NCBI GenBank assembly: GCA_021432655.1
Contig: MU271219.1
Coordinates: 1-64,000, forward strand
DNA: 64,000 nt
Direction of reading: 5' to 3'
DNA from: Atractiella rhizophila
Taxonomy: Eukaryota
The notes beneath the pieces are model-generated. The model made no database searches. It saw only the letters and a program-made list of their open reading frames with translations, and was not told the origin of the DNA. Positions 751-63,231 of this stretch are shown here, one piece after another (position 1 is the stretch's first letter; each line of letters starts with the position of its first letter). The translations under genes were made by a program, and so were the position numbers.

Positions 751-1571
751 ATCTATATGCACTCTCTAGTCGCAGTGCGCTGTTGCAGATATATATGTGG
801 TTGAACAGATAGTATCAATAGACCCTGGGTGATGTAGATGAAATGTGAAAGAACGTCGTACGTGGGTTAGTTCTGCTTAGAGTATCATGGGGTTTCTATG
901 GTCATTGTGGACCACCGCTATATAGAAGCATGATAGCAAAAAACGGAAGCGACGGCACGAGGTCAGTTGTACCTCGACCTCTCATGCTTATAATTCACCA
1001 GTCGCCCTGTGGCTCTTTCAAGGATATTAAAGATAACGCACTGTGGTTGTTTATGTAAATGTAAGAATTATGCTTGAGGTGAACCACTGTGGGACGAGTT
1101 ATCTAACGCGTTGTATCTACCTGAAAATCACTTCATTCAGCTTGCGTTGCGCTTTGAAACCCCCTCGTGCAAGGAAGTGCATTGAGAACATGATGTAGCC
1201 TGCAGTTAGAGCGGTGGAATCGAGAGTGGTCTAGGGAATCTTGTTCTGCGTGATGTTACGATAAGCCATTCTCGCCTGAATACTATCGGTGAGACAGGGT
1301 CTTTCTTCATCTAAAGAAAAGGCTTCTCCAATTATTCTCTCATCATATGCCGATTTGAAACGAAAATGTTACAATTTGGGTTTATTGTTGAATATGCGGC
1401 GCCTTGTGGTTTCTCTAACGCACGACGACAATCGGAAGAGCAGCTGCAACAATGATTAATATTCATTGAAGACAGTTGCCTTCAAATGCTGCCGTAATTT
1501 CGCCCATATATCTGTCTAAATTGGTTGGCAATCGCAACTATCCTCCAGTTATGTCTCTACCTCATTAGAAC

Positions 1572-3136
1572 ATGGAAGGAGTTCCAGTTTGTGCTGAGTT
1601 GCTCCTACCGCCCGTCACATTCCCTTGTTCCTTTTTCGTCAAATACGACCACCTCGTGCTCCTCCTCTACAATATCGCAAACACAAGGTCTCAAAATACC
1701 ACAAATATTTTAATAAATACCGCGGTTTGGTTCAAACATACCCAGAAATGGAAGAACAAGTCGTTGTAGTTAGAGGTTCACGTGAGGACAGAAAGCAGCG
1801 AGCTGCACCTATTGAGGAAGGGAACAAAGCAGTCTCATATCTGAGCGACAAAGGTGACCGGGAAGTGGGAAACAGAAAAATTTGTAGGACGATTTCGAGG
1901 AGATAGAGTTGGTGGGTAAGGGTTACAGTGGAGTTGTACGTGTTTTCCCTCGCTTGATTGAAGAACGGAGTGAATGATGAATGGATTTGTCAGGTATCTC
2001 TTGTAAAGCACATCGGGAGCGGAAAGGCGTACGCGATGAAAGTGTTGAGGAAACGTCGCGTCCTGCAGTTTGGCCAGCTTCGCTGCACCATGGATGAGAA
2101 AAGAATCCTTCAACTCATGGTCGACAAACCTTTCATCGCAAAGCTTCAGTGGGCATTCCAAGTAAGCTGTCTTTCTCCATATGTGCATTCAAACAATTCC
2201 CAGGACTCGGAGCGTCTCTATCTTGTCCTCGAATTGTTGGTAGGGAACGTATGTTGTTTTTCTCATTTCATTGCTTTTAAAAACTGTTTTACATACAGAG
2301 ACCTTTCGAACCTAATGGCTCAACTGAGACGATCTTGGTGCATGCCCTCATTGTTTCTTCCAACCTAGTTCCCTGAGGACAAAGTTGTGAATACGGTCGC
2401 ACAAGATCTTCTTCGTGGATTATTAAAGAAATCTCCTACGCAGCGATACTCAGAAAATAGTATTCGGTGCCATGCATATTTTTCACGCGTGAGATGGGTA
2501 GAGTGCGTGTTTCATCTCAAACCCAAACCAGCTTTGCTCATCTTGCTTAAGGTCTCCCAAAAACGATATACGCCACCTTGGATTCCGAATATCGACAAAT
2601 CGAATGTTTCTGTTTTGGACACACGGAACTTTCAGCTCGACGACGAAGAACCTGACCCTGAACCTGACTTGGGCTTCCCTCCAGAAAGCTCGACTGCTTC
2701 GCAAGGCAGAGATGTCTTTAGAGGCTTTTCATTCGATCAGGCCGATTCAGCAAGAAGTACAGGGACATCTGGTTCCACTTCCCCCGTCCTTCCTGCCTGC
2801 ACACGAGAAACTCAGTTCCATCGCGAAGACGCAGTCGTCTCCTTAGCCGCACCACGGCTTTTCACCACCAGAAATTCTCTTGAACGCCGCCGAGGGTCGG
2901 CTCAGGAGACAGCGAAGGAGGGAATGCCAGGGCCAAATGGGAAGGAGAACCATCTGGGAGGTGCAATTCTTGACGGAGTTTTGGGACGCATGGTCGAACC
3001 GGAGAAGAATGTCGTGAGCTATGACGTTCTCGAGGACGAACAAGTGGAGAGAATCCTGCGGAAGAGAAAGCGAGCAGGTGTCAGTGCGGATGTGGCTGAT
3101 TTACCGGTCAAGAGGACTAAATTCGAACATGTCTAG
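1572..3136 (+). CDS. AGC-family Ser/Thr kinase-like gene lacking subdomains VI-VIII (pseudokinase or pseudogene); 5' end uncertain
   Basis: Spliced exons give DDFEEIELVGKGYSGV|VSLVKHIGSGKAYAMKVLRK...DEKRIL...PFIAKLQWAFQ|DSERLYLVLELLVGN|RPFEP...AQDLLRGLLKKSPTQRY...YTPPWIP...FRGFSF (AGC hydrophobic motif). No HRD, DFG or APE motifs are present. Confidence 0.75.
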
Positions 3137-3505
3137 AAGTCCGCTAGTTAATAGAAAGGCAGGATTGGGAACCAAAGGCGGGAATCAATCTCAATTATTG
3201 CAAGGCTTATACTGTCGGGATGTAGATATGGAAAGCAGATGATTAACCTTTCTTGGGGCAGGTTTTCTGGGGTCCATTCACAAAACGAATATGTATTGAT
3301 AATCTTTGAGTACTGACTGCTATTACATATGCACTGAATACTGGAAAGAGAGAGATTATCGACGATAAATCATGTCTGCTGTGAACGATGCCTGGGCCGA
3401 AATGGCGAAAAGAGTAATACGCTCCGAGAAGTTGGTGAAAGTCACTACAAAGGCTACTGAATCTGATCCTCAAGCGGCTGTACCGATGTGTTCAGATAGA
3501 GAATC

Positions 3506-6081
3506 CTACGTCGACGCTTGATCCTTCTTCACATCTTGTCCAGTCCCGGAAGAATCTAGCAGTTCAGCGCCAGTCAAAAATCCTAACGGCGCAGGAGGAG
3601 CGAAGAGATCCTCCGTCGGCGACTGGTTGGGAGAAGGGTTAGATTGGGGTCCAAACAAACCTCTGACGCGATTTCCTATACCAGAGAGAGGAGACGACGG
3701 CCTGGAGATTTTTCCTGTTTGAGGCGGAGCAGGTTGGGTAGTCGAGTGCGAATGTCCTGACTGGGAACCTGACGAGTTCCTCACGCTTCCATCCAGGGCA
3801 ACGTTCGATGTTTCCCAGGTGTGAGGAGGAACCCAATCTAGCCCATCATCCTCCACGTCGGATTCAGGAGCCGTGCGTGGCCTCCATCTTTGGATATCCT
3901 TCTGAAAGGGAAGAGAAGCGACAGGAGTCCTGGGAGAGATGTGCAGTTGAGGAGAAGACTGAGGCCTCTGGGCTTGAGGATCCATTGCAATAGTTTTTGA
4001 CTGCGCAGGATGGGAAGCGTAAGGATGGGAAGGAAGAATAGCAGAATCCGTCTCTCGTTCCTGTTCTTCGACGACCACATAGCCCAGAGAAGCCGATCGC
4101 CCAAACTGAAGCGCAGGTAAGCAGCGGTTCGACTCCGCCTGGTCTGAAAATGCAAGGCTGACCTCATTGGCCCTCCCATGCCAACTTCCTTTCCTCCCAC
4201 TAGTACCTGGATCACTTCCATTCACCTTCCTCACAAATTCTTTGGAACTTGGACGTCTACTTCCTGGAGGGCTGCCTACGAGGGTGTCCGGTCCACTGTC
4301 CTTCCTCGGAGGGAAGGAGTAGGGTAAGCGAGAAGAAGAAGGCATAGATACGTTTTTATCAGGGAATCCCGGATTGGGAGAGGTGATTGAGTAGTTTGAA
4401 AATGAGGGACTATCCGGAGGGGTACCGAATGGCGCATTCGGGGTACGGATCCAAGATGGATCTCGAGGAGATCCAGACGGTCTAACCGAGCCAAGGTGAA
4501 CTTGGTATTCTCCCACGTTGGTTATTGGAAGAGACGCATCCGAACACTTCCTGTCCCGTTGGCTGTTGCCGTCATAGATTGAAAGGCTCTCTGGATTTTG
4601 ATACAGGGGTATTGCAGATGGACGACGCTTTTGTTCCACCGTTGGGCCAGTGTGTGGAGGATCAATGATTGCTGTAGAGGTAAAGTTAGAGACGGAATGT
4701 TTCGTTGAGTACGCCCTGACAGAGAAGATGATGCGAGAGATGAAGATTTGTGTGAGGACGAAGGAAGGTAACATGTTCAACATCCTGTCATCGATGTTAC
4801 AGACATAGAACGACATGAGGAGAAACGAACTTGTATGGAAACTGTCCAGGCTGCAAGACCAATACGACATTCACGAAATTGATAAGACAGATTGTCTAAA
4901 TCACACGTCAGACTCAGGTCGTAAAACGTCAAACATTCAACTCACGAGAACGTAAACTACTTGATTGTTCTTGATTTTGTCCATAACTTCATTCCTAATG
5001 GCGGGGAAGTCTCGTACTTCCTGCAAAATTCATCGTGCTCAGCAATAGACTTGGGAACCAAAAGAGGGAAACGAACCTCCCACCGTTCAAAACACTTCCA
5101 AATTGTCAAACCAAGAAGAATATGATGATAAACCGAAGGAACGACGAATGTGAGAGCGAAAAGTTTGGACGAAGGAAGGAGAAGGCAAGTTGAAGAATTA
5201 TTGCCGGGAACTTCGATCAAATAAGCTGAACTTCCCTTCTGAGTGCATATTCGAGGGAAGGCAGTGAATACTCACGTTGCACAGAAAAATCAGCTACTAG
5301 TTCTACATGTCTCAGATGAGCCAATTTCAAGCAAACCGGAAGAAATGACCAACCGATAACTGCACTTAAGGCACCTCCAACAAAACAAAAAACGACGTAT
5401 TTGTTGCCTCGATCCACGTATAGCGCACGAATCCTCAACGACATGATGATGTGCGTCCCAATGCTAAGGAAAGTGAAACCGAACGGCCACAGGCGGAGAA
5501 GAGAACATGAGAGACGAGCAGAATCTGTAGGCGAGGGTTGGTGCGAGATCACGAAGAAGATTGTATAGAGAAAGATGACGACGAGGCAGGTGTAGCTGTC
5601 AATTCATGTTAGCGGCCGCATATGGGTGTTTTCAACTGTTATGGCCACGCAACGAGCAATAGACGGTATAATGGACGTGGAAAGAAGAAGTGGTTTACTG
5701 CTCCGGAGGGATGACGTAAAGGAGAACCGTGAAGAACAGGGCTGGTCCTCTTCTCAAGCCTCTACATGCCCAACTGTAGAATAGAGAAAAGCACTAGATT
5801 TTCAAAGCAAGGATTTCCCCTTTCCTCTATTGCTCAGAACACATTCCGTTCTCTTTCGTCCTGCGAAACGAAACAGAGATCACTCACCGACTCCCCAACA
5901 CGGTAGCTCTCATAGCACCCTTCCCATCCCAAATCCACCTCCTCTCCCTGCCAAAGTTGCTTCCCCAATCCCAAAGCGCCACGGCGAGGGTTGCGGTCAG
6001 AGTCAAGGTGTGAACGTAATCGATCTCCAACGGCGACCTTGCTGACGGGTTCTGAAGGAGGAGAGGAGGTAAGAAATCCAT
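3506..6081 (-). CDS. Multi-pass membrane protein (DUF6533-like N-terminus) with long Ser/Pro-rich cytoplasmic tail, multi-exon
   Basis: N-terminus MDFLPP...TATLAVALWDWGSNFGRERRWIW matches the xxWDxxxxxxxExxxIW pattern. Hydrophobic exons follow (IMSLRIRALY; LGLTIWKCF), then a 454-aa low-complexity last exon. Confidence 0.7.
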
Positions 6082-9038
6082 CTCTGCTGCATTCCTGTCA
6101 GTGGTAAGCGCTGAGGATGATGTTGTGGAGAAAGGGGTATTAAAGGGGGACGTATTGAGGGTGTGATGGACGATGGACACCAAGTGAACGCGTCAAAAAA
6201 TAATGAGAACTGAGCTTGACTTCTGGAACCAAATCAGCGGTCAGATCTGTGTCGATCTCCCAAGATCTCCCGATCTGCACTTTCTTTCCGCAAAGTTGGG
6301 ACTGTTTCTATTGCTGCTGCTGCCAAGAGCAATCAAAGAAGTAGGTAAGCCCTTCAATGCCTTCAATGCAATCCTGTCATTCGTTTTTCGACTTCCAACT
6401 CCCCCAGGCAAACCTCCACAGACTCGTTCGTGAAGGTACATAAGGTCCTGGGGGATAGGAAGGCGTGATCTTCCAATTTGGAACTCATTTCAGCCTTCTC
6501 CAGCCTCGTCCTTCCTGTTGGATCAGGATGGATTTCGGCGTGGTCAAGGCGTGTTGTTGCAACGGAGCGTTGTACGTCAGAACGTCGAAAATGTGGAGAA
6601 GAAGCAGAAGACGAATCTGGAGAGGAGCTTAGAACACCTTGGGTTCAACTTGGTTCGTGGCCAAAGGAACTACACCGGCAGCTTGCAACGACTGAATCTG
6701 ACTGAACGAGGAGAGACGAAGGACGAAAGCTTTTTGGACTAGACTCGGAAGGCCAGAGGGAGAACGCCTCTATCGGGAGCCTCAGAAGGACACCAGTGTA
6801 TTCGAGGTCGCAGTAGGCGTTTACGCTGCTACAGTAGTTGAAAGTTGAACAACCAAGCTAACAGAAATGCGAGGCGGAGGGTGCTGACGACAGCAACTCG
6901 AAGTTGTCAGAGTATAGATGCCAAGCTGACAAAAATAACGAAACGGATTCGCAGAGCTCTGGAACAAGAACGCTCGTTGATGGGCCACGTAGACGACAAG
7001 ATTATTACGTTAGCATGAAACGACAGTGTGCATCCGAGAACAGCTCCTGGTGACGATAGTATGGCCAAAATTATGAGAAATGGAAATTTGATGGGTTTTT
7101 CTTAGATCCGTGGATGACCCAAGTGTGAGGAGAGCAGAGAACTCTGGTTCAGAGCGGCGTCCTTTGTGGCAAAGAGAGAAGGTACTGCAACCATTCATTC
7201 CAGAACTGGTTTATTGTCATCAACCTTCCTCGGCTGCTTAAGAAAATGTTCAACGAATGACAGCGATTGCACCGGAGCTGCAATGAGATGCAGGAGCTGA
7301 CTAGTCATTTTTTCATACCAATCTTTGCACGATGTATTCTGGACTCGTCTAACGATTATTTTTATGAGAACAATCTTGCCATTTGACCACTTCCCGCTTC
7401 TTGTGGTTATCGTTAAGAAGATCAAAAGGAGAATAAGTAGCCTATGAAATGGTTCTCTCTTCTCCCCTCGTGTACCCAACCTCTTTCCATGATGTAGAAT
7501 TAGAATCCACAGGCAGAACTTATCGCCAAGGTGGCTTCATATGTTCAGAAACGCTTCGAATTCGTGGCTTTGCAAGCTGCTCTTTTCAGCCTTCCGCACA
7601 CCTGGTCTTTTTAACTAGATTTGCTATTACGATGCTAGCGTCCCAGAAGACTGAGTCGTAGCCATAAAAGCGCTCATGGAGTCCGTTATAGGGGCCAAAA
7701 ACCTGACCGCCACCTTCTATGGGACCCACATATTGCACGGGCACTAAGAAAGACTATGAAGGGGCTTGTAATAGTACCACCAGCGCATAGCGGTGTCGCA
7801 GCCATGAAATCCTGAGTGTGAAGTCGGTTCGGGTAAGCTTATGCTACAATTTTTATCCAAGCAAAAGAGCTTATAAAAGGTCAAACTTTCATTAATAATT
7901 CAGGCACAAATATAATTGACGAGTTAACGTGGAACCCAACACGTGCCCTCCATTTGTTCTTTCAAATTGCTACCAACTCGTGGCAAGTGAAACCTCTACC
8001 GACTAGACCTCTGAGCGACAGAGGATAGATTATACAGTACGTTATTTTTTCGCTATTCCCGTGCCCCAGTCGCCTTGAGGGTTCCACCACTCAACCACCA
8101 GATAATGCATCGACTCAAATCAGGACTCAAATGACTGTTTTTGTAAGGCATGACGCGGTGGGCAACCAACAACAATTATGCACTATGTCCCATCACCATC
8201 GACCTTGACGTACTGTAGCTAATTATTTTCACGTTCGATTTGCTTGAACAGTGCGTGAGCACGCAAGACGACTAGTAACTTGTAGCCAGACAAAGCAACG
8301 TCGCGTCGAGATAACCCTGCGAAGCGAAAGCGCACCAGAATATCCTTTAGTCGCGTTCCACCATGTCCCACAAACCCAAAGTCATCTGCAGCCCACTAGG
8401 CTCAAGCAGTCATCTAAATAGTCAGTCATCCAAATTGTCATCTTTCTAGCTTCAAGCCATCCATCTCACTCACAGCCTTCTAACCAAACAAAGCTAACAA
8501 AGCTCAGGATGATAGATGATTAGATTTGAGCATTGTCGCCTGGCCCATCGTTACACGAAGGCGTCGTCATGTCAGTGTAGTAACAAAATTAGGTGAGTGG
8601 TTGTGTCTAACGGGGGTAGTGTAATTCCAAGTTCTAACTTTTTGGTGTCATTACCAACGATGATTTATACTCTTTGATTTGATGAATCAAAGCTTTCCTT
8701 GCCATCGGAGATAGATTTGTTTGTGTGTAAAATTACACATCACGACTTCAGCAAAGCAGATGGTGGTGTTTGAAAGTCGAAGAGGCTCCAAACGTTGAAA
8801 GATGCTTCGAGAGAAAGAATATTGTGTCCAGCTCGGCGGGAGTGTATCGTGCTTAAAGTTGCGTACAGTTGCAATCTCACTCGCAATGCTGGTTGTGAAA
8901 ACTCAACGCTCAACGTTGCTATCGCCCCAAGCTATGTGATGCATTGCTATGCTGTCTGATGTTAAACTGTTACCCGATGCGTTCTTCAGTTCTGTCACTA
9001 CTGCACAATAATAAGATGAAAATGTGTTCTTCTCCGGC

Positions 9039-26360: not shown

Positions 26361-27459
26361 ACCAATGCGCCATTCACCACCTCTGCCTCGCGTCCTGAGA
26401 GAAGAGCGAGGTGGGGTTACCGCAGAAGGGGTACGTCGGCGCGGACGACGTAGGCGATGGAGCAAGGATGGTCGAGGGGAGGGAGCAGCCACGCCTGTCG
26501 TTGAGGGAGGGACCAGTCCTTCATCGTCTGTGTAGGTGGGATAGTAGATGGGCCAATGAAGCACGGAGTCGTACATGAGAGTCTCGTAGATGTAACGGGC
26601 TTCGTACGACATGTCTGCTTGCAGTTTTGAACCTTGACGTGGATTGCAGCTGAAGAATCAAGACATAGAGAAGGATTCTCTCACGCAAATCTCGCTATAT
26701 GAAAGGAATTGCAACGAGAGGGCAAGAAGGCAGAAAGATGACAATATGTCAACTCCTCTTCGTTGACCGCGTCTAAATGATCTGTTATCAAACCTCTCAA
26801 TCAAGATGAATTGGCGCGCCCATCCTCCACATGCAGGTCGAGAGCAAACATTTTCGTGATTGCCGGAAACAGCGACGATAAGGTGGCTCCAGGACCAAAC
26901 TTGCACAAAGCATTGTGGACGCGGTTACAATTACCGGGCCGTCAAGACTACTACGCAACACCCTCTGGACAGAGGTACGTTCAACACTTTCCCTGAAGGA
27001 AATGCTGCCGTAGTATGAATCGAAGATCTGAAGTCCTTCACTCAAACGGCTCACGCGGCAACCCGACCATTCCTGCTACGTGCAACTTGTTGGGAGATGG
27101 GAGATGGAGATATGTTCAGCTGACAAGTGGCACAGGCAGCTTGACAAATAGAGACAATCACTGCTAGTCAGTATTTTGATCCGTGCATTCCAGCGGAGAA
27201 TGTTCATTCGTGGAACGTTGTTTTGCCAGCGGATTGTTAGAGGGATGTGCTTGAACGCTCTGTGCTGCAAAAGAGGGAATATTTCGATGTCACACCTTTG
27301 AGTGCGTCCACTGCTTCATTAAGCATGAGAGTAAGTGTGAGGGTGGAGTGTGGAAGAACGGAGGGACGCATGGCCCTCTGCCATTCGTGCGCATGACGCG
27401 ACGTTACAATATTGGGGTAACAGTAATCTTATCATGCATTACAGTAAAGAAGGGCTCAA
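26361..27459 (-). repeat. Tandem segmental duplicate of the gene B 5' exon plus upstream region (gene fragment 26361-26612)
   Basis: 26361-26950 is near-identical to 22187-22788, and 26951-27459 is similar to 25860-26360. The coding copy is truncated just after GGEWRIG. Confidence 0.9.
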
Positions 27460-28681
27460 GCTCTAAGCTGAGAGCTTCTAAACCTATTCAAGATGATTGA
27501 GGCATTGGTCTTCGCTTAAGCTCATCGTCACATATGCCTACCTAATGTTGCAGTGCTCAGAGCCAGAGGGCCATCGAATCGTTACATGATGAGGAGCAGA
27601 AATCAAGTATTCTGTTGGCGCAGAGGGGGAAACCAAGAAGGCCGGACGGGTAGACGGGTGAGGTGTTGGAGATGGAGAGATTGAGCAATCTGCCTTGCTT
27701 CTCCAGGTCTCACCGGTTGACCTGTTGACCCTGCTTCGCATTACAGGGTTTCCCCCCCAGTGATGTGGAGTGCCCCTCGGTGCCAGCTCTTTCCTCCCTT
27801 GCGTGGCAGGTTGCAGTGTTATCCACTAATTTTGAAGACGTTGGCAATTGATGTTTCGAGCGTCTTACAAAGAATGACAGCAGGTCGAGCTCCAATTCTC
27901 CCTCGCATTTGATCCCAGCGCCACGATGTTTTCGTCGTTTCTTGTGTTGTAATGGATATAGCACACAACTCCTCCCTGGTATATCTATGGCACCAAGTCT
28001 GAGCACTCGTACAATAAGTCGTAGAATGGCCTTGAATGTCACCGGCTGGCATCGCGTCGGAGATTACTTCGTCTCCCAATTTGAAAGTGGAATCTGCTTC
28101 ATCAATCTGTGGACTGCACTCTCTGCGCCTTTTGTTCCGGGATTAATATGCGAAAGCAGTCCCGGATGTTTCCAACCCATTTCAACTTCGACAGCCGCTT
28201 TTCTGACATTTAGATCCGATCCTTCGTTTCTGTCTGCAATATCGAACGCGTGACCACCTATCCTGCCATGCTCAGCGACACCCTGGTTGTGTTGAAAGGC
28301 TTTCATATACAAGAGCGGGCTTTGTACGGACAGACGCTTGCCCCAAAATGAGAGCTTAGACTTCCTCCTCTGTGCAGAATGAAGTACATTGTCCGTCAGT
28401 TACAGTTCAAGAAAAATGTCAGGATATTCACTCGCGAAGATACGCGAGCAACAAACCCAGCGAAGCATTCATCATCTCTCCTGACGCAAGCAGCCATTCT
28501 TGGATGTAGTTGTTGGATGGTCGTACCATTCCCTGTTTCAGCTCGCGCGCTCGCATTCCCGTAATTGTTTTTCGGCGCGAGCATCTACTTCCCTCCGGAA
28601 CTTTAAGAGACTATAAAAACACATGCAATGAGAAATTGTCCTTCTAACAAAATTCCCCCTCTATCCTGTTTTCATCATCAA

Positions 28682-57712: not shown

Positions 57713-59256
57713 CTACAAACCCTCTTCTTCAGCATCGTTTAGCTGTGACACAGTAACACTGTTGCTGCCAATATCGCTTTCCGTCACTGCCTTCTTTACT
57801 TCCTGCGCACGTCGCCAATAATACTCTTTAGGTGTTTCTGACGTAAGCGTTGGCTGGTCCTCCTACCCATCCATCAGCCGAGAAGGATGAGGCAGAAGGT
57901 ACTTGCCTGGTCTATTTCGACAATCGTTGTATTCTGCACAACCACCGCAGAAATCCCAGAAGTCCTTGGCATTGTTCCAGTAACCTTCAGAGAAGGAGAT
58001 CCTGAGGAACGGAGACTGTTTCTAAGCAAGAGGTTTGCCAGCAAAGTTAACGTGTCTTTGGTTGACCATGCATGCATCAGTCAATATATGGGTGAAGTAG
58101 GGAGAGTGGCTCACAACCACGACCTAACGGATATGCAACACCAGCCGAGTAGGTGTTTAACCGATTTGTGAGATATACGACGAGGACGATACAAGCCCAA
58201 AGACTTGATGCGGCAACAACGCGTCAGCCGTGACACCTGCAGAGTTGAACGGCAGACCTGGTAAGCAACCCAGTCTCGACCGTCATGATGATTAAGCGAG
58301 AGAGAATCGACCGTGTTTCATCGACTGTTGTTCGTCGATGGAAGCCGTAGAGGTCGTAGACCAGGGCAGAAGCGATCAAAATGTCTAGATCGAACTAATC
58401 AGGAAAGGGAGGCGACTAGACAGCACAGACCAGTTGCTGCTTCTAAACCTAACCAAAGGCTGTTGGAAGTCAACGTCAGGCCGCAAGGGATACGTGACAT
58501 ACGTCAGGTAAACAGCTAAACTTTCTTGCAGGTACAAGGTAGCGTGTTGAACGAGCGCGACAGCAAGGGCGAGTGAGGTTGCGAACTTGCCAAAACTATT
58601 AGGAGCGAAGGCGGCCGACAGTTTGCTTACAGCTGCCATTGTACTTGCGAGTAGAAAGAGACTGATGAGTACATTCCGAGAAAGTTTCCAGTATCGATGG
58701 AGGAGGAAAGTTTGTAAAACGAGTGCCGTCAATGCCTTGACTCGGGGTCAACTGATGACAACAAAGATTGAGCCAACACTTGCTGTGCAAAGCTCGTAGA
58801 CGATAACTATAGTGCAATCAGTTCATTTCCGACAACGGGGTCATTTACTTACAATGCCAATGTTGTCCCAAGAGGTAGCTGAATTCCCCTACACTCAGCA
58901 TCAGTCTATCAGTCCTTACGAGGAATCTGGGCTGACCGAAGTGAGTGATTGCATAGTCGTAGACGCCCATCTGGGACACAATCACGGCTACTGTGTCTAC
59001 CACGAGCACCTACAGAGTGTCAGCGCGCCATTTCTTGTCACGAAATGAGATTGAGAATTACAAAGGCTATCGCACACTTGAGGACTGCAGTGTCTTTGAC
59101 CACGCGTTGCTGATACCAGTGGTGGGCTAACAAAAGTTCGATGCCATAGAGAGCAGTGGATATCCAGCTTCCAATCATCAGCGGCGCCACGACCGCACTC
59201 ACAACTTGCTCAACGAAGTCAGCTAGCTGCGTATCGTTTGACACAGAGGATGACAT
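57713..59256 (-). CDS. Integral membrane protein (DUF6534-like), multi-exon
   Basis: PLMIGSWISTALYGIELL...QTFLLHRYWKLSRN...RLIIMTVETGLLT...TLLANLLLRNSLR...EEEGL*. Confidence 0.75.
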
Positions 59257-59796
59257 GCTGTCTGCGGCGCTAAGAAACAAGCGAAAGAAAAGATATCTAA
59301 GAGGGACGCCCTTGCCGGAGGGAATCATATAGTAGTGCATTTGGAACGAAAGAAGCGATGCCGTTCATTGTGAGACCGAATCAAGCTGATTAACTGGAAT
59401 AAGGGGAATTTCCAACATTTTGAATAATGACAAAGGCAATGGAAGGAGATGCAACTTCATAAGTGAGGTTAGCAACAGAACATTCCGAATGGGCCTTCGA
59501 AAACTAATTCGACTTCCTCTGTACTTCTTCCGGGTGCAGACTGGATGCAGGTCTATAACAGGATGTAGAGATGTACTGGGCGTCACGGGAACCCAGCAGA
59601 TTTCATTCTGCATATGGGCGCGGAAGTAGGTTCCCACAAGGCGGCCGATATTTTGAGTCAAGCATGAGGGAAGACTCGAGATCATAAAACATATACGCTG
59701 TACTAACAAAGAAAGTGACATATCTCAATTGTCCATATTAAAGAGCCATACTTGAGAACGAAACAAACCCAAAGTCCCTGCTGCTTGGCTATACAA

Positions 59797-61276
59797 CTAC
59801 CCTCTAACAGCTCTCCACCCTAACCACACTCCACCGAAAACGAGCGCAACCATCGTTCCATAAGTCGCGCGATTCCTCGTTGCCGGAGAGCACGACGGGC
59901 AAGTCCACTCGCTTAGTGGTGTGTAGGCTGCAGGTTGGTACATGGCGAACTGATAGCCGACTTCTGGAGCGAACAAACCTGCTGAAGGAAGGACGGAAGG
60001 ACCTCGGGAGTCGAATATTTGGAGAGTATAGGTTGAGTCCACAAGTTGGCGATTTCCTGGGACATTCTGCCACTGTTCCCATGGACTCCAAACATAAGAC
60101 GTCTGTCGCCCATCGATTCCCGATGCTGGTCCAATGTCATACGTAAAGGCGTTCTTGCTACAGACGGCCTGGGAAAGCGGTCAGCTTAAGGTAACAGTGA
60201 TAGAAAACAGAAAGCTCCTTGCCTTAAGGGTAAGAGCTGTTGGTGTCCTTATGACGTCTGTTAGGGACCAGCCAAAAGTTATCGATTGTGACGGCGCGAC
60301 TGGTGAAAACGATGTTAGATCGATTGATGAGACACGGGTAAATGGCACTTTTGTAGTACGAAACGCCTGCTGTTATTGCTGGTGTGAGCAACGTAAGGCC
60401 ACCAGCCGGTGCATCCTACAAAAATCAATCAGTTCTGTTCATGGAAACAAACTCCGGAATCAGAGATAATGAAAGTGGCCACAGGACTGAGTGTGCCTTG
60501 TGGCTTCAATTTGGACTGCTGTGTTCTCCTTTTGACTGTTTCCCTTCCCAAAGCTGCCCGTCAATTGACACTGAAGGCGAGGCAAAATCTGATTTAGATG
60601 TTGAGGGACCGAAGAGATGGGTATGTAAGAAGGCTATACATACATCCCATTGCAGGTTAACAATGGTCAATAAAGTGCCTTCGAAGAGGAGCATTCTGTG
60701 CGGCATTCTTTGTGTTATGGGGATAGGCACAGGGACAGTCAAAATAGCAAGAAACAGTCCAAGTAGCTTTGATAGAGCTATACATTAACACGATGATGAT
60801 CAAAGTCAATGTACAGGAGCTCGGTGAATGGCATCATTTAGTTCTCCTGCAGTAAAATAGTCACAATTATGGAAGGAGCTGGGCAGGAGAATATGTGTTA
60901 GCAAGATCAGCATTGAAGCTTCCCGTGATGCTCGATAGGGCAACAAGGAAACGACATTCATCAGAAGAGTCCTAAATAAAGGAAAGTGCCTCGTCTTGCC
61001 CCTGTTCCCACAAGCTGTACTTCAGATGCGGATGGAAGGAAATTTCTTGCTTCACGCTCCCATCATGCAGTACGTGATTGATAAAGGTAAGGTAAAACTA
61101 CATACAACGGGTATGGGTGTGTCATCCTGCCTTTTCTCAATTTCAACCCTGGCCTCTGACCTCCTCTCTAGCGGCAGTGTCGGCGGCGTCGTGATCTGTG
61201 CCACGAATGCGTCGTTTGAAGAGGCTGAAGCTGCTAACGAAAGTACTGGGAGTGCGAGCAGGAGTAATGGCTTCAT
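59797..61276 (-). CDS. Conserved fungal secreted or membrane-anchored protein (PAGG...YYKI...ITFxW motif) with an unusually long first intron
   Basis: Signal peptide MKPLLLLALPVLSLAASA...DDTPIPV|DAPAGGLTLLTPAITAGVSYYK|IAPSQSITFGWS...|AVCSKN...FAMYQPAAYTPLSEWTCPSCS, then a hydrophobic tail. Confidence 0.8.
60416..61105 (-). ncRNA. Candidate structured intronic RNA (690-nt intron)
   Basis: GTATGT...TAG intron about 12 times the local norm, containing many nested inverted repeats (see findings). Confidence 0.55.
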
Positions 61277-62463
61277 TGCGACGGCAGGAGGACGTGAGTA
61301 GGGAGTCAAGGGTTGTTAACTTGTTGGCCTCGTCGTTCTGATGCAATGGACGTGCTTGTGAAAGGAGCAGAGACAATGAAAAATACTGTGAAAGATTCGT
61401 GAAACCTTCATCTTGACTTTCACATTTTGGATTGGAGTCGAAGCGTCGAGGGAACGAGCCTGGGAACCGTTGTAAGAACAAGGTGAGAGCTCCAGCTAAC
61501 TGTTGAGTAGTGTTGAGTATCGTTGTGGATGTGTTGGGCCTTTTATCATCATTGGTGCTTGAAGGCACTGGCTGGACCTCCCTTTGCCAGGGATTTCGAT
61601 GTTTTCCCGCATTCAAACTTGAAAGTTACAAATCAAAGGAGTTATTTATGAATTAAAGAACCCAGACTCAAAAATGATATCAATCCTCACGAGTAAACTG
61701 GGGGAAGTCAGTACTTTATGAGACTGTCTCGACGTTGTAATAGATCCACCAACATGTGTGGAACTCAGACCTTCAGAGTAAGTTTCACCCTCTGATTGTC
61801 CTCATGAAGCGCTGTGCTCCTTGTTATCATACTCCTTCCCAAGTCTCTCCCCTTGGTCTAGACGCTTGGACCACGTTTGAACTGACCTGTGCATGTTAGG
61901 CATTGTGAGACTTGCCATGTCACAACCACTGTTCCATCAAACCAGCCGCTTCGGCTCCAGTTCAGCATGTGATGGCCTGGAAGATTCGATTTTCATCATC
62001 TTCTAAGTTCCTACCGTGCACCTCTTTGAAAGTCTGCTCTTTTTGATTGATCGGATGCCGTCTGAATTCTGATTTTTGTCCTCTACCTCCGAAGCATTCG
62101 TTTTATGCCTAGAAACAGAGCCAGCATTTTCTCATCCGAATATTCGCACTGCTCGCAGCACATCAGTGCGTGCAGCCATACAAGCATTCTGTCTTTCATT
62201 ATCTGAACTCTTGCAACCATTGAACTATTAACCACCCTGTTAGCTCCAAAGTCCATTCTGCTGTCAGAACGCTCTATTTCCTCTCACGTATCTGTTGGTG
62301 ACATTATCTGCCCATTAAGCCGTGACCCTTTGACCCATCGACTAATGGCACCAACAGGAACCGTAGCGCTCCGAGTCACCTCTACTCGTGAAGGTCAAGT
62401 ACGTGTCCATAAAAGTATCAACTTCCAACAACGCCACAGCTCCCATCTACCAGTCGAACGGTC

Positions 62464-63231
62464 ATGTCGCGCATCGTATATAAGAACACGGCGTTCCCGC
62501 CCCCTTCTCCTCCCGCTGAAGACGCGTATCACCTCACCACCGTGCCCGAGGAGTACGATCTTAACTTCTGCTTTCCTGTCAAGGCACTCGAAAGTTCACT
62601 AGTGAAGCTGGAGCCGTTTATTGTCCGTCTTTCCATACTGATTAATTAAGACTGATGCGTCGCCGGATAGCCATCGCTGCATGCGCGAGAGTATTTCGAT
62701 GCACTCTCCGAATTTGATACCCAGACGCTCTTCAGCTACCTGCCCTATGGCCCATTTCCCACGCTTCATTCCTTCCTCAACTGGTTGGAACTCCGTATCC
62801 GCACCGACTCGGGGTCTCAGCTGTTCGTCATCCATTCCTCGGGCAAGTTGGCAGGCGTCATTGGCTACCTCAAAGGCAACTACGGTTTCAAATCCGTAGA
62901 GATTGGACACATCGTTATTCTCCCCACTTTCCAAGGTACAAAGGTCACTACGCACGCTGTGGGGTTGATGGAACAATATGCGATGGAAGAGCTGAAGTTG
63001 TGGAGGTGTCAGTGGTATTGTCACGACATGAACGCGAAGAGCAAAGGAGTTGCATTACGGATGGGGATGCAGGAGGAGGGCTTATTGAGGTGGGAGAAGA
63101 GGTTTGGGAATGATAAACCGGGTTTGGATGGGAGAGATTCAAAAGGCAGACATTCGCGCGTGCTTGCTGTCACATGGGAAGACTGGGAGAATGGGGTGCG
63201 TGAAAAGGTCAATGGATTATTGGAGGGATGA
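62464..63231 (+). CDS. GNAT acetyltransferase (RimJ/RimL-like), one intron at ~62624-62670
   Basis: LVKLEPFI|...LFSYLPYGPF...SVEIGHIVILPTFQGTKVTTHAVGLM...WRCQWYCHDMNAKSKGVALRMGMQEEGLLRW. Confidence 0.9.

Follow-up and report, generated by a model that had tools for sequence, protein, structure and literature searches.

The 690-nt interval 60416-61105 on the minus strand is a spliceosomal intron of the conventional U2 type and forms the long first intron of a highly expressed Atractiella rhizophila gene for a putative secreted DUF7137 protein. Its transcribed strand is the most fold-prone 690-nt stretch of the 64-kb window (the whole stretch of DNA that was analysed), and its summed predicted stability is a real outlier, with p about 0.01 or less against shuffled sequences. 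A preliminary description had taken the interval for an undescribed structured RNA folded end to end into nested helices. That reading is left without independent support: end closure, short helices, hairpins and G-U asymmetry are all at chance level. We judge that intron 1 is probably an ordinary long first intron carrying neutral inverted repeats.

Gene structure and splice junctions

RNA contigs of four public runs (X3, X6, X9 and X13), aligned to positions 59600-61800 at 85% likeness, and a public protein define a gene of four exons:

59797-61276, minus strand: DUF7137 gene, four exons (contigs and public protein)
61106-61276, minus strand: coding part of exon 1, 57 codons beginning with the ATG at 61276-61274, ending ...TPIPV
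60416-61105, minus strand: intron 1, 690 nt, phase 0, GTATGT...TTTTTGTAG (RNA joints)
60428-60432, minus strand: branch-site-like CTGAT, putative branch A at 60429 (motif scan)
60349-60415, minus strand: exon 2, 67 nt (contig joints, frame check)
60300-60348, minus strand: intron 2, 49 nt, GT..AG (joint in 4/4 runs)
60223-60299, minus strand: exon 3, 77 nt (contig joints, frame check)
60169-60222, minus strand: intron 3, 54 nt, GC..AG, borders GCAAGG...CCCAG (joint in 4/4 runs)
59797-60168, minus strand: exon 4 with stop codon, DUF7137 and hydrophobic C-terminus (PF23585, E = 1.3e-24)

Contigs of X3, X6 and X13 join 60414/60415 to 61105/61106, skipping exactly 690 bases. The joint reads CT..AC on the plus strand, equivalent to GT..AG on the minus strand, where GTATGT begins at 61105 and TTTTTGTAG ends at 60416. 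X9 is without a counted joint; 18 loose letters behind 60415 match the end of exon 1 with one mismatch. The 690-nt intron proposed from the DNA is thus real, with joints in three of the four runs and a fitting loose end in the fourth. It shows the features of a U2-type intron: GT..AG borders, precise removal, a reading frame that continues into a conserved protein and a branch-site-like motif. The branch-site consensus is CTRAY; in the CTGAT motif, the putative branch A is 13 nt away from the final base of the intron and falls within the outer 8-bp helix of the predicted fold. The preliminary description had also put nearly all other introns at about 45-60 nt, which holds for the two other introns of this gene (49 and 54 nt), the sole introns checked; a rough count of the window's short introns by regular expression showed no distinct peak of length and was set aside as a check of this statement.

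The RNA contig cover of exon 1 extends over 61105-61326, and its translation is identical to residues 1-57 of the public protein P0001. By its sequence, the exon 1 product consists of a signal-peptide-like hydrophobic N-terminus and a linker, and no Pfam family matched it. Exon 1 encodes a KR dibasic site in ...EIEKRQDD.... When exon 4 was searched against a large protein collection, 81 candidates yielded a single protein, P0001 (229 aa, 100% identity over 97% of the exon-4 query), which its source calls a hypothetical A. rhizophila protein. In P0001, ...TPIPV is followed directly by DAPAGG... across the V57|D58 junction of intron 1, so the 690-nt intron was already part of the public gene model. 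The name 'DUF7137' found no mention in the literature searched.

Joining the exons by their coordinates yields a 228-aa open frame with a single terminal stop, which differs from P0001 only from residue 107 on, at intron 3. The joint of intron 3 has a 4-base ambiguity, and GC..AG borders result once it is placed on the AG acceptor. Removal of this 54-nt GC..AG intron (60169-60222) gives ...LTLKAVCSKNAF..., where P0001 instead reads ...LTLKARSFLKNAF...; from the two sequences, the deposited model appears to follow another splice choice at this intron.

Relatives, expression and gene surroundings

A metagenome scan with the exon-4 protein as query gave 208 pattern matches that led to two loci, L001 and L002, with 39-41% identity. 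Both are collinear with residues 56-223 without any intron, and represent cDNA-like or intronless genes. Their alignments start at residue 56, exactly at the boundary of exons 1 and 2, so that the signal-peptide and linker exon is not conserved with them. Intron 1 parts this exon from the conserved-domain exons, and the long intron thereby stands between a variable leader exon and the conserved domain.

The spliced DUF7137 mRNA (59686-61326, minus) also turns up in sequencing runs filed under some ten other organisms, as well as in root metatranscriptomes (24 rows from 18 studies). In X3, one of the four runs examined, it has a depth of approximately 1700, and it may be one of the most abundant in-planta transcripts of the root endophyte A. 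rhizophila.

Next to exon 1, positions 61277-62670 comprise approximately 1.4 kb without a convincing ORF, which is long for a compact fungal genome, and are followed by a divergent GNAT acetyltransferase gene (62671-63231, plus; PF13302, E = 4.4e-11). The tile at 61796 (minus) within this interval has the fifth-lowest fold z of the window, -1.45.

Predicted fold of intron 1

The minimum free energy (MFE) structure of the sense strand contains a composite terminal stem, a large closed domain and several local hairpins:

61056-61089, minus strand: composite terminal stem, 5' arm, intron positions 17-50 (predicted fold)
60417-60448, minus strand: composite terminal stem, 3' arm, intron positions 658-689 (predicted fold)
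60511-60762, minus strand: domain D, 252 nt, intron positions 344-595, two closing 10-bp helices (P 0.92 and 0.90)
60842-60891, minus strand: hairpin B, perfect 9-bp stem, 32-nt loop (P 0.96)
60775-60822, minus strand: hairpin C, 5+10+4 bp (P 0.79-0.99)

The helices listed in the preliminary description are genuine complements, all six of the pairs tested being exact (five long-range pairs and 60842-60850/60883-60891). Its five local hairpins are likewise all present in the MFE structure. Of its five long-range pairs, three are retained there with mean pair probabilities of 0.90-0.99 (60424-60431/61075-61082, 60511-60518/60755-60762 and 60530-60539/60735-60744), but the other two, 60497-60503/61008-61014 and 60503-60510/60912-60919, give way to competing helices. 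Overall, the predicted structure is fairly well defined, with 106 base pairs of probability >0.9.

The composite terminal stem is made up of 3+8+3+8 bp with mean pair probabilities of 0.84-0.99; its outer 8-bp helix (intron positions 24-31/675-682) has P 0.99. The 3' arm shares bases with the branch-like motif and with the stretch leading to the 3' splice site, and the predicted stem would need to open before U2 could pair. The closing helices of domain D, 60511-60520/60753-60762 and 60530-60539/60735-60744, form an imperfect inverted repeat of approximately 30 nt (blastn self-inverted match of 29 nt, 76%). Another 10-bp helix, 60780-60789/60805-60814, lies within hairpin C.

The proposed end-to-end closure was borne out in that the outer helix occurs in the MFE structure, but such closure is ordinary, the ends lying as close or closer in 105 of 150 shuffles. 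[quoted passage not shown] A duplex at least as stable as the terminal one (-24.7 kcal/mol) was formed by 1274 of the 5472 native 55-mer pairs at the same spacing, a control set that is not composition-matched, and by 149 of 5000 shuffles of both ends. As a general rule, the ends of a long RNA lie near each other, and because shuffled sequences close their ends too, closure is no evidence for a special fold.

Zipper stems are common in long yeast introns, in which structure is also enriched around cryptic sites, according to PMC12350175. The 8-bp helices of the terminal stem in intron 1 begin at intron positions 24 and 43, within the range that this paper gives for the start of a zipper-stem helix. 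Helix 675-682 holds the branch-like A (677), and helix 658-665 ends 12 nt from it. As the terminal stem thus overlaps the branch motif or comes within 12 nt of it, it falls outside the positional definition of a zipper stem in PMC12350175. The proximity of the ends expected of a zipper stem is likewise no better than chance gives (24 compared with the shuffle median of 19).

Folding statistics

The sense strand of intron 1 has an MFE of -196.8 kcal/mol, corresponding to z = -3.71 against 20 shuffles and z = -3.11 against 100 dinucleotide shuffles, of which 0/100 were as low. The plus strand is less exceptional (z = -1.46, 7/100 shuffles as low). For a native background, 91 non-overlapping 690-nt tiles were scored on both strands (182 tile-strands; one tile with N was excluded) under a composition model trained on one shuffle of each tile-strand, which placed native tiles at a mean z of +0.36 (sd 1.02). 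The intron 1 sense strand, at z = -3.46, ranks 1 of 182, the next score being -2.53. Comparison with shuffles, the check named when the structured RNA was proposed, therefore came out in its favour: intron 1 is more stable than shuffled sequences and than every other 690-nt tile of the window. A first regression, on native MFEs (z = -4.24), was set aside because it predicted -164, 9 kcal above the measured shuffle mean of -173.5.

Inverted repeats exceed chance moderately. Compared with dinucleotide shuffles, intron 1 contains 30 exact inverted 7-mers (17.5 expected; reached by 7/300 shuffles), 12 exact inverted 8-mers (4.5 expected; 4/300), five exact inverted 9-mers (1.1 expected; 11/300) and one exact inverted 10-mer (0.27 expected; 59/300). 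Local hairpins are unexceptional: among 25,544 native 60-nt windows scored by GC-adjusted MFE, z < -2 occurs in 2.4% inside intron 1 (sense) and in 2.3% outside, and the best hairpins of the intron rank approximately 90th-190th.

Domain D has z = -3.17 against shuffles. Among 1512 native 252-nt windows its z of -3.49 is the lowest, but three windows unrelated to it come close (-3.41, -3.36 and -3.35); since domain boundaries were taken from the MFE structure, such z-scores are biased low and are used only to show where the signal lies. Each half of the intron has z of approximately -2.3. The outlier status of the whole intron is the sum of several moderately stable parts. Its stability excess comes from a few medium- and long-range inverted repeats of 9-10 bp together with many small contributions, and not from exceptional local hairpins or a special end-to-end closure.

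The gain of G-U pairs on the transcribed strand, put forward as a further sign of RNA structure, was found in part: 23 of the 204 MFE pairs are G-U, but the strand asymmetry is ordinary. The sense strand scores below the antisense strand in all sub-domains except E, and for the whole intron the z difference between the strands is -1.58 (sense minus antisense), a magnitude that 12 of 90 other tiles match or surpass.

Elsewhere in the window, the next-lowest composition-adjusted 690-nt score is that of 27296-27985 (plus), with z = -2.53, and the low-scoring 252-nt windows start at 6331 (minus), 32875 (plus) and 51271 (minus), with z of -3.41, -3.36 and -3.35, respectively.

RNA from within the intron

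Removal of intron 1 is precise and, judged by contig depth, almost complete. Word depth in X3 is approximately 1100-3600 for exon contigs and 2-6 for intron contigs, contig depth being a poor measure in libraries of unrecorded type, of which a poly(A) library would miss a hosted stable RNA. Contigs inside the intron were seen in one of the four runs (X3); the intron stretches without contig cover in X6, X9 and X13 are no proof of absence. Nothing in the contig depths suggests an accumulating intron RNA.

One low-depth X3 contig spans 60831-61001 and continues for 16 further letters, all of them the same as in the final stretch of exon 1, which would point to the following acceptor:

61002-61003, minus strand: cryptic AG acceptor (X3 contig, depth 2.2 compared with 1718)

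Use of the acceptor at 61003-61002 would leave a 104-nt intron, with a stop after 9 codons. With just 16 letters on the exon side, this contig is only a weak hint of a rare unproductive isoform. It does not amount to an unrecognised exon of importance inside intron 1.

A second low-depth X3 contig, covering 60629-60968, differs from the intron by 34 substitutions and 5 indels in 340 nt; for the X3 exon contigs the number of differences is 0-7. This divergent copy shows that intron 1 diverges fast and accepts indels. Thirteen of its 39 differences are listed, comprising 8 substitutions and 5 insertions. Five of these substitutions are at positions unpaired in the MFE structure, two keep a weak pair as G-U and one breaks a pair of probability 1.00 whose partner lies beyond the contig. 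One insertion sits in the 10-bp stem of hairpin C. With 3 of 8 listed substitutions at paired positions in a region that is 56% paired, this small and incomplete sample shows no depletion.

Known RNA classes, coding potential and mobile elements

The comparison with Rfam suggested alongside the structured-RNA proposal gave no significant match for intron 1, the best having E = 2.3. At gathering scores, the whole window yielded 0 matches; at permissive thresholds, positions 59000-62500 yielded four chance-level matches (E 2.3-8.9), all far below the gathering score. Those in intron 1 are to sR4 (16.1 bits compared with a gathering score of 50, E 2.3, on the plus and therefore wrong strand) and to snoR118 (16.1 bits compared with 44, E 8.9).

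Box C/D RNAs are recognized by a C box (RUGAUGA) and a D box (CUGA) that a terminal stem brings together, and H/ACA RNAs by a hairpin-ANANNA-hairpin-ACA layout. The C box RUGAUGA is absent from the intron 1 sense strand, and the sole CUGAUGA...CUGA pair spans 58 nt with a terminal stem of 0 bp. Inspection of the MFE structure showed no two-hairpin unit ahead of any of the 16 ACA triplets. A sno- or scaRNA-like RNA, as the preliminary description had suggested, is unsupported, since intron 1 matches no Rfam family and has neither a C box nor other box architecture, its closure, hairpins and strand asymmetry are ordinary, intron depth is 2-6 compared with approximately 1700 on the exons, and the divergent copy carries 34 substitutions and 5 indels in 340 nt, with one change that breaks a pair of probability 1.00 and one insertion in the stem of the best hairpin.

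Intron 1 contains four ORFs, none with a Pfam family above cut-off, in agreement with the earlier statement that no ORF is convincing. An Alpha-amyl_C match in one of them was dismissed (E 0.051, 13.9 bits compared with a cut-off of 27).

Also as first described, the intron ends are without terminal inverted repeats (TIRs), and no long foldback arms or target site duplication (TSD) were found. Around the imperfect inverted repeat of approximately 30 nt that bounds domain D, no TSD is visible. A multi-copy repeat, which would have spoken against the structured RNA, was sought within the 64 kb, and no second copy of intron 1 appeared: blastn of the intron against the window (word size 7) returned the intron itself and chance matches of 12-27 nt with E of at least 1.5, and none longer than 15 nt at E < 1. 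With no TIR at its ends and no copy in the window, intron 1 does not resemble a MITE or DNA transposon.

Fungal introner-like elements are, according to PMC3609843, multi-copy, longer than regular introns and lower in predicted free energy, with stable secondary structures. In length and energy intron 1 is of this kind (690 nt compared with 49 and 54 nt; z = -3.11, rank 1 of 182). No paper that names 'introner' together with 'Atractiella' was found in the literature searched.

Origin and significance of the fold

Under the reading that we consider probable, the inverted repeats of intron 1 would be neutral by-products of the growth of a long intron, possibly derived from decayed insertions or hairpin-creating replication errors. 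The intron would encode no discrete stable RNA, and if the fold had an effect, for instance by making the intron more compact or by masking cryptic splice sites, that effect would be incidental. This agrees with the finding that end closure, the terminal duplex, 60-nt hairpins and strand asymmetry are all at background, that domain D (z = -3.49) stands beside unrelated windows at -3.41, -3.36 and -3.35, and that intron 1 has no known RNA family, sno box architecture or coding potential. The divergent X3 contig, which breaks a pair of P = 1.00 and carries an insertion in a 10-bp stem, points the same way, although 5 of its 8 listed substitutions are at unpaired positions and 2 are kept as G-U, as a conserved structure would also give. 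Against neutrality, the stability is a true outlier, with no other tile-strand within 0.9 z units and 0/100 shuffles as low; 106 pairs exceed a probability of 0.9, the sense strand scores below the antisense strand in every sub-domain except E, and no insertion remnant, TSD or second copy was found in the window. We regard it as doubtful that the fold is under selection, whether as a scaffold for a short-intron basidiomycete spliceosome or as the remnant of an introner-like mobile intron. A fold selected as a splicing aid, with helices that, for a spliceosome accustomed to introns of about 50 nt, would compact the 690-nt intron, hold its ends together and bury cryptic splice sites by analogy with zipper stems and other structures of long yeast introns, appears unlikely. 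It would suit a gene whose other introns measure 49 and 54 nt, the stability outlier, the composite terminal stem (17-50/658-689, P 0.84-0.99) and the cryptic acceptor at 61003-61002, which adjoins a predicted helix and was seen in one contig (2.2 compared with 1718); yeast zipper stems and structure near cryptic sites, as given in PMC12350175, offer a precedent. Yet the ends come no closer than those of shuffled sequences, and the duplex between them is unremarkable. The branch-like CTGAT falls inside the outer helix, and only 12 nt separate the branch A from the end of the 8-bp helix that follows.

Less likely still is that a decaying introner-like element or transposon-derived insertion with its own stable structure lengthened or created the intron. 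Its greater length and lower free energy, traits of fungal introner-like elements in PMC3609843, and the imperfect inverted repeat of approximately 30 nt bounding domain D would fit such an origin; the lack of a second copy in the 64-kb window and of TIRs, a TSD and long foldback arms speaks against it. Least likely of these readings is that intron 1 harbours a separate stable non-coding RNA, either like a sno/scaRNA or belonging to a new class, which is released after splicing. Only its general stability and the two sub-threshold Rfam C/D matches (sR4 and snoR118) would favour this, but these matches are far below the gathering score, one is on the wrong strand and there are 0 at the gathering score. 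Moreover, the intron has no RUGAUGA, its lone CUGAUGA...CUGA pair is without a terminal stem, no H/ACA layout occurs, and intron contigs appear in one of four runs at a depth of 2-6, compared with approximately 1700 on the exons.

As the evidence stands, intron 1 is a long intron that had been annotated before and whose folding statistic, though interesting, lacks support. It is chiefly of value as a caution: in a 690-nt RNA, end closure, nested short helices and G-U asymmetry arise by chance, and the one exceptional feature is the summed energy. If the fold were selected, the idea from yeast that long introns need internal structure would extend to a distant, intron-rich basidiomycete, and the very high expression and clean splicing of the gene would make the intron a simple test case; if it were introner-like, the intron would bear on fungal intron gain and would be the first such element noted in Atractiellomycetes.

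Comparison with known systems

Intron 1 resembles the hosts of box C/D or H/ACA snoRNAs in its location in a highly expressed gene, but, unlike these, has no C box, terminal stem, H/ACA layout or near-threshold Rfam match. With the fungal introner-like elements, as characterized in PMC3609843 and in the 2012 study that it summarises, it shares length, canonical splice signals and low predicted free energy; the defining trait given there is the presence of many near-identical copies in unrelated genes, whereas intron 1 is single within the 64-kb window.

The structured long introns of Saccharomyces cerevisiae contain zipper stems, downstream stems and multi-way junctions, as set out in PMC12350175 and PMC2536676. 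In contrast to the zipper stems described there, the predicted terminal stem of intron 1 departs from the position rule and brings the ends no closer than shuffled sequences do. The likeness to the S. cerevisiae introns is threefold: intron 1 is long in a fungus with otherwise short introns, it is predicted to be more stable than shuffled controls, and its predicted stem connects sequence downstream of the 5' splice site with the 3' portion of the intron.
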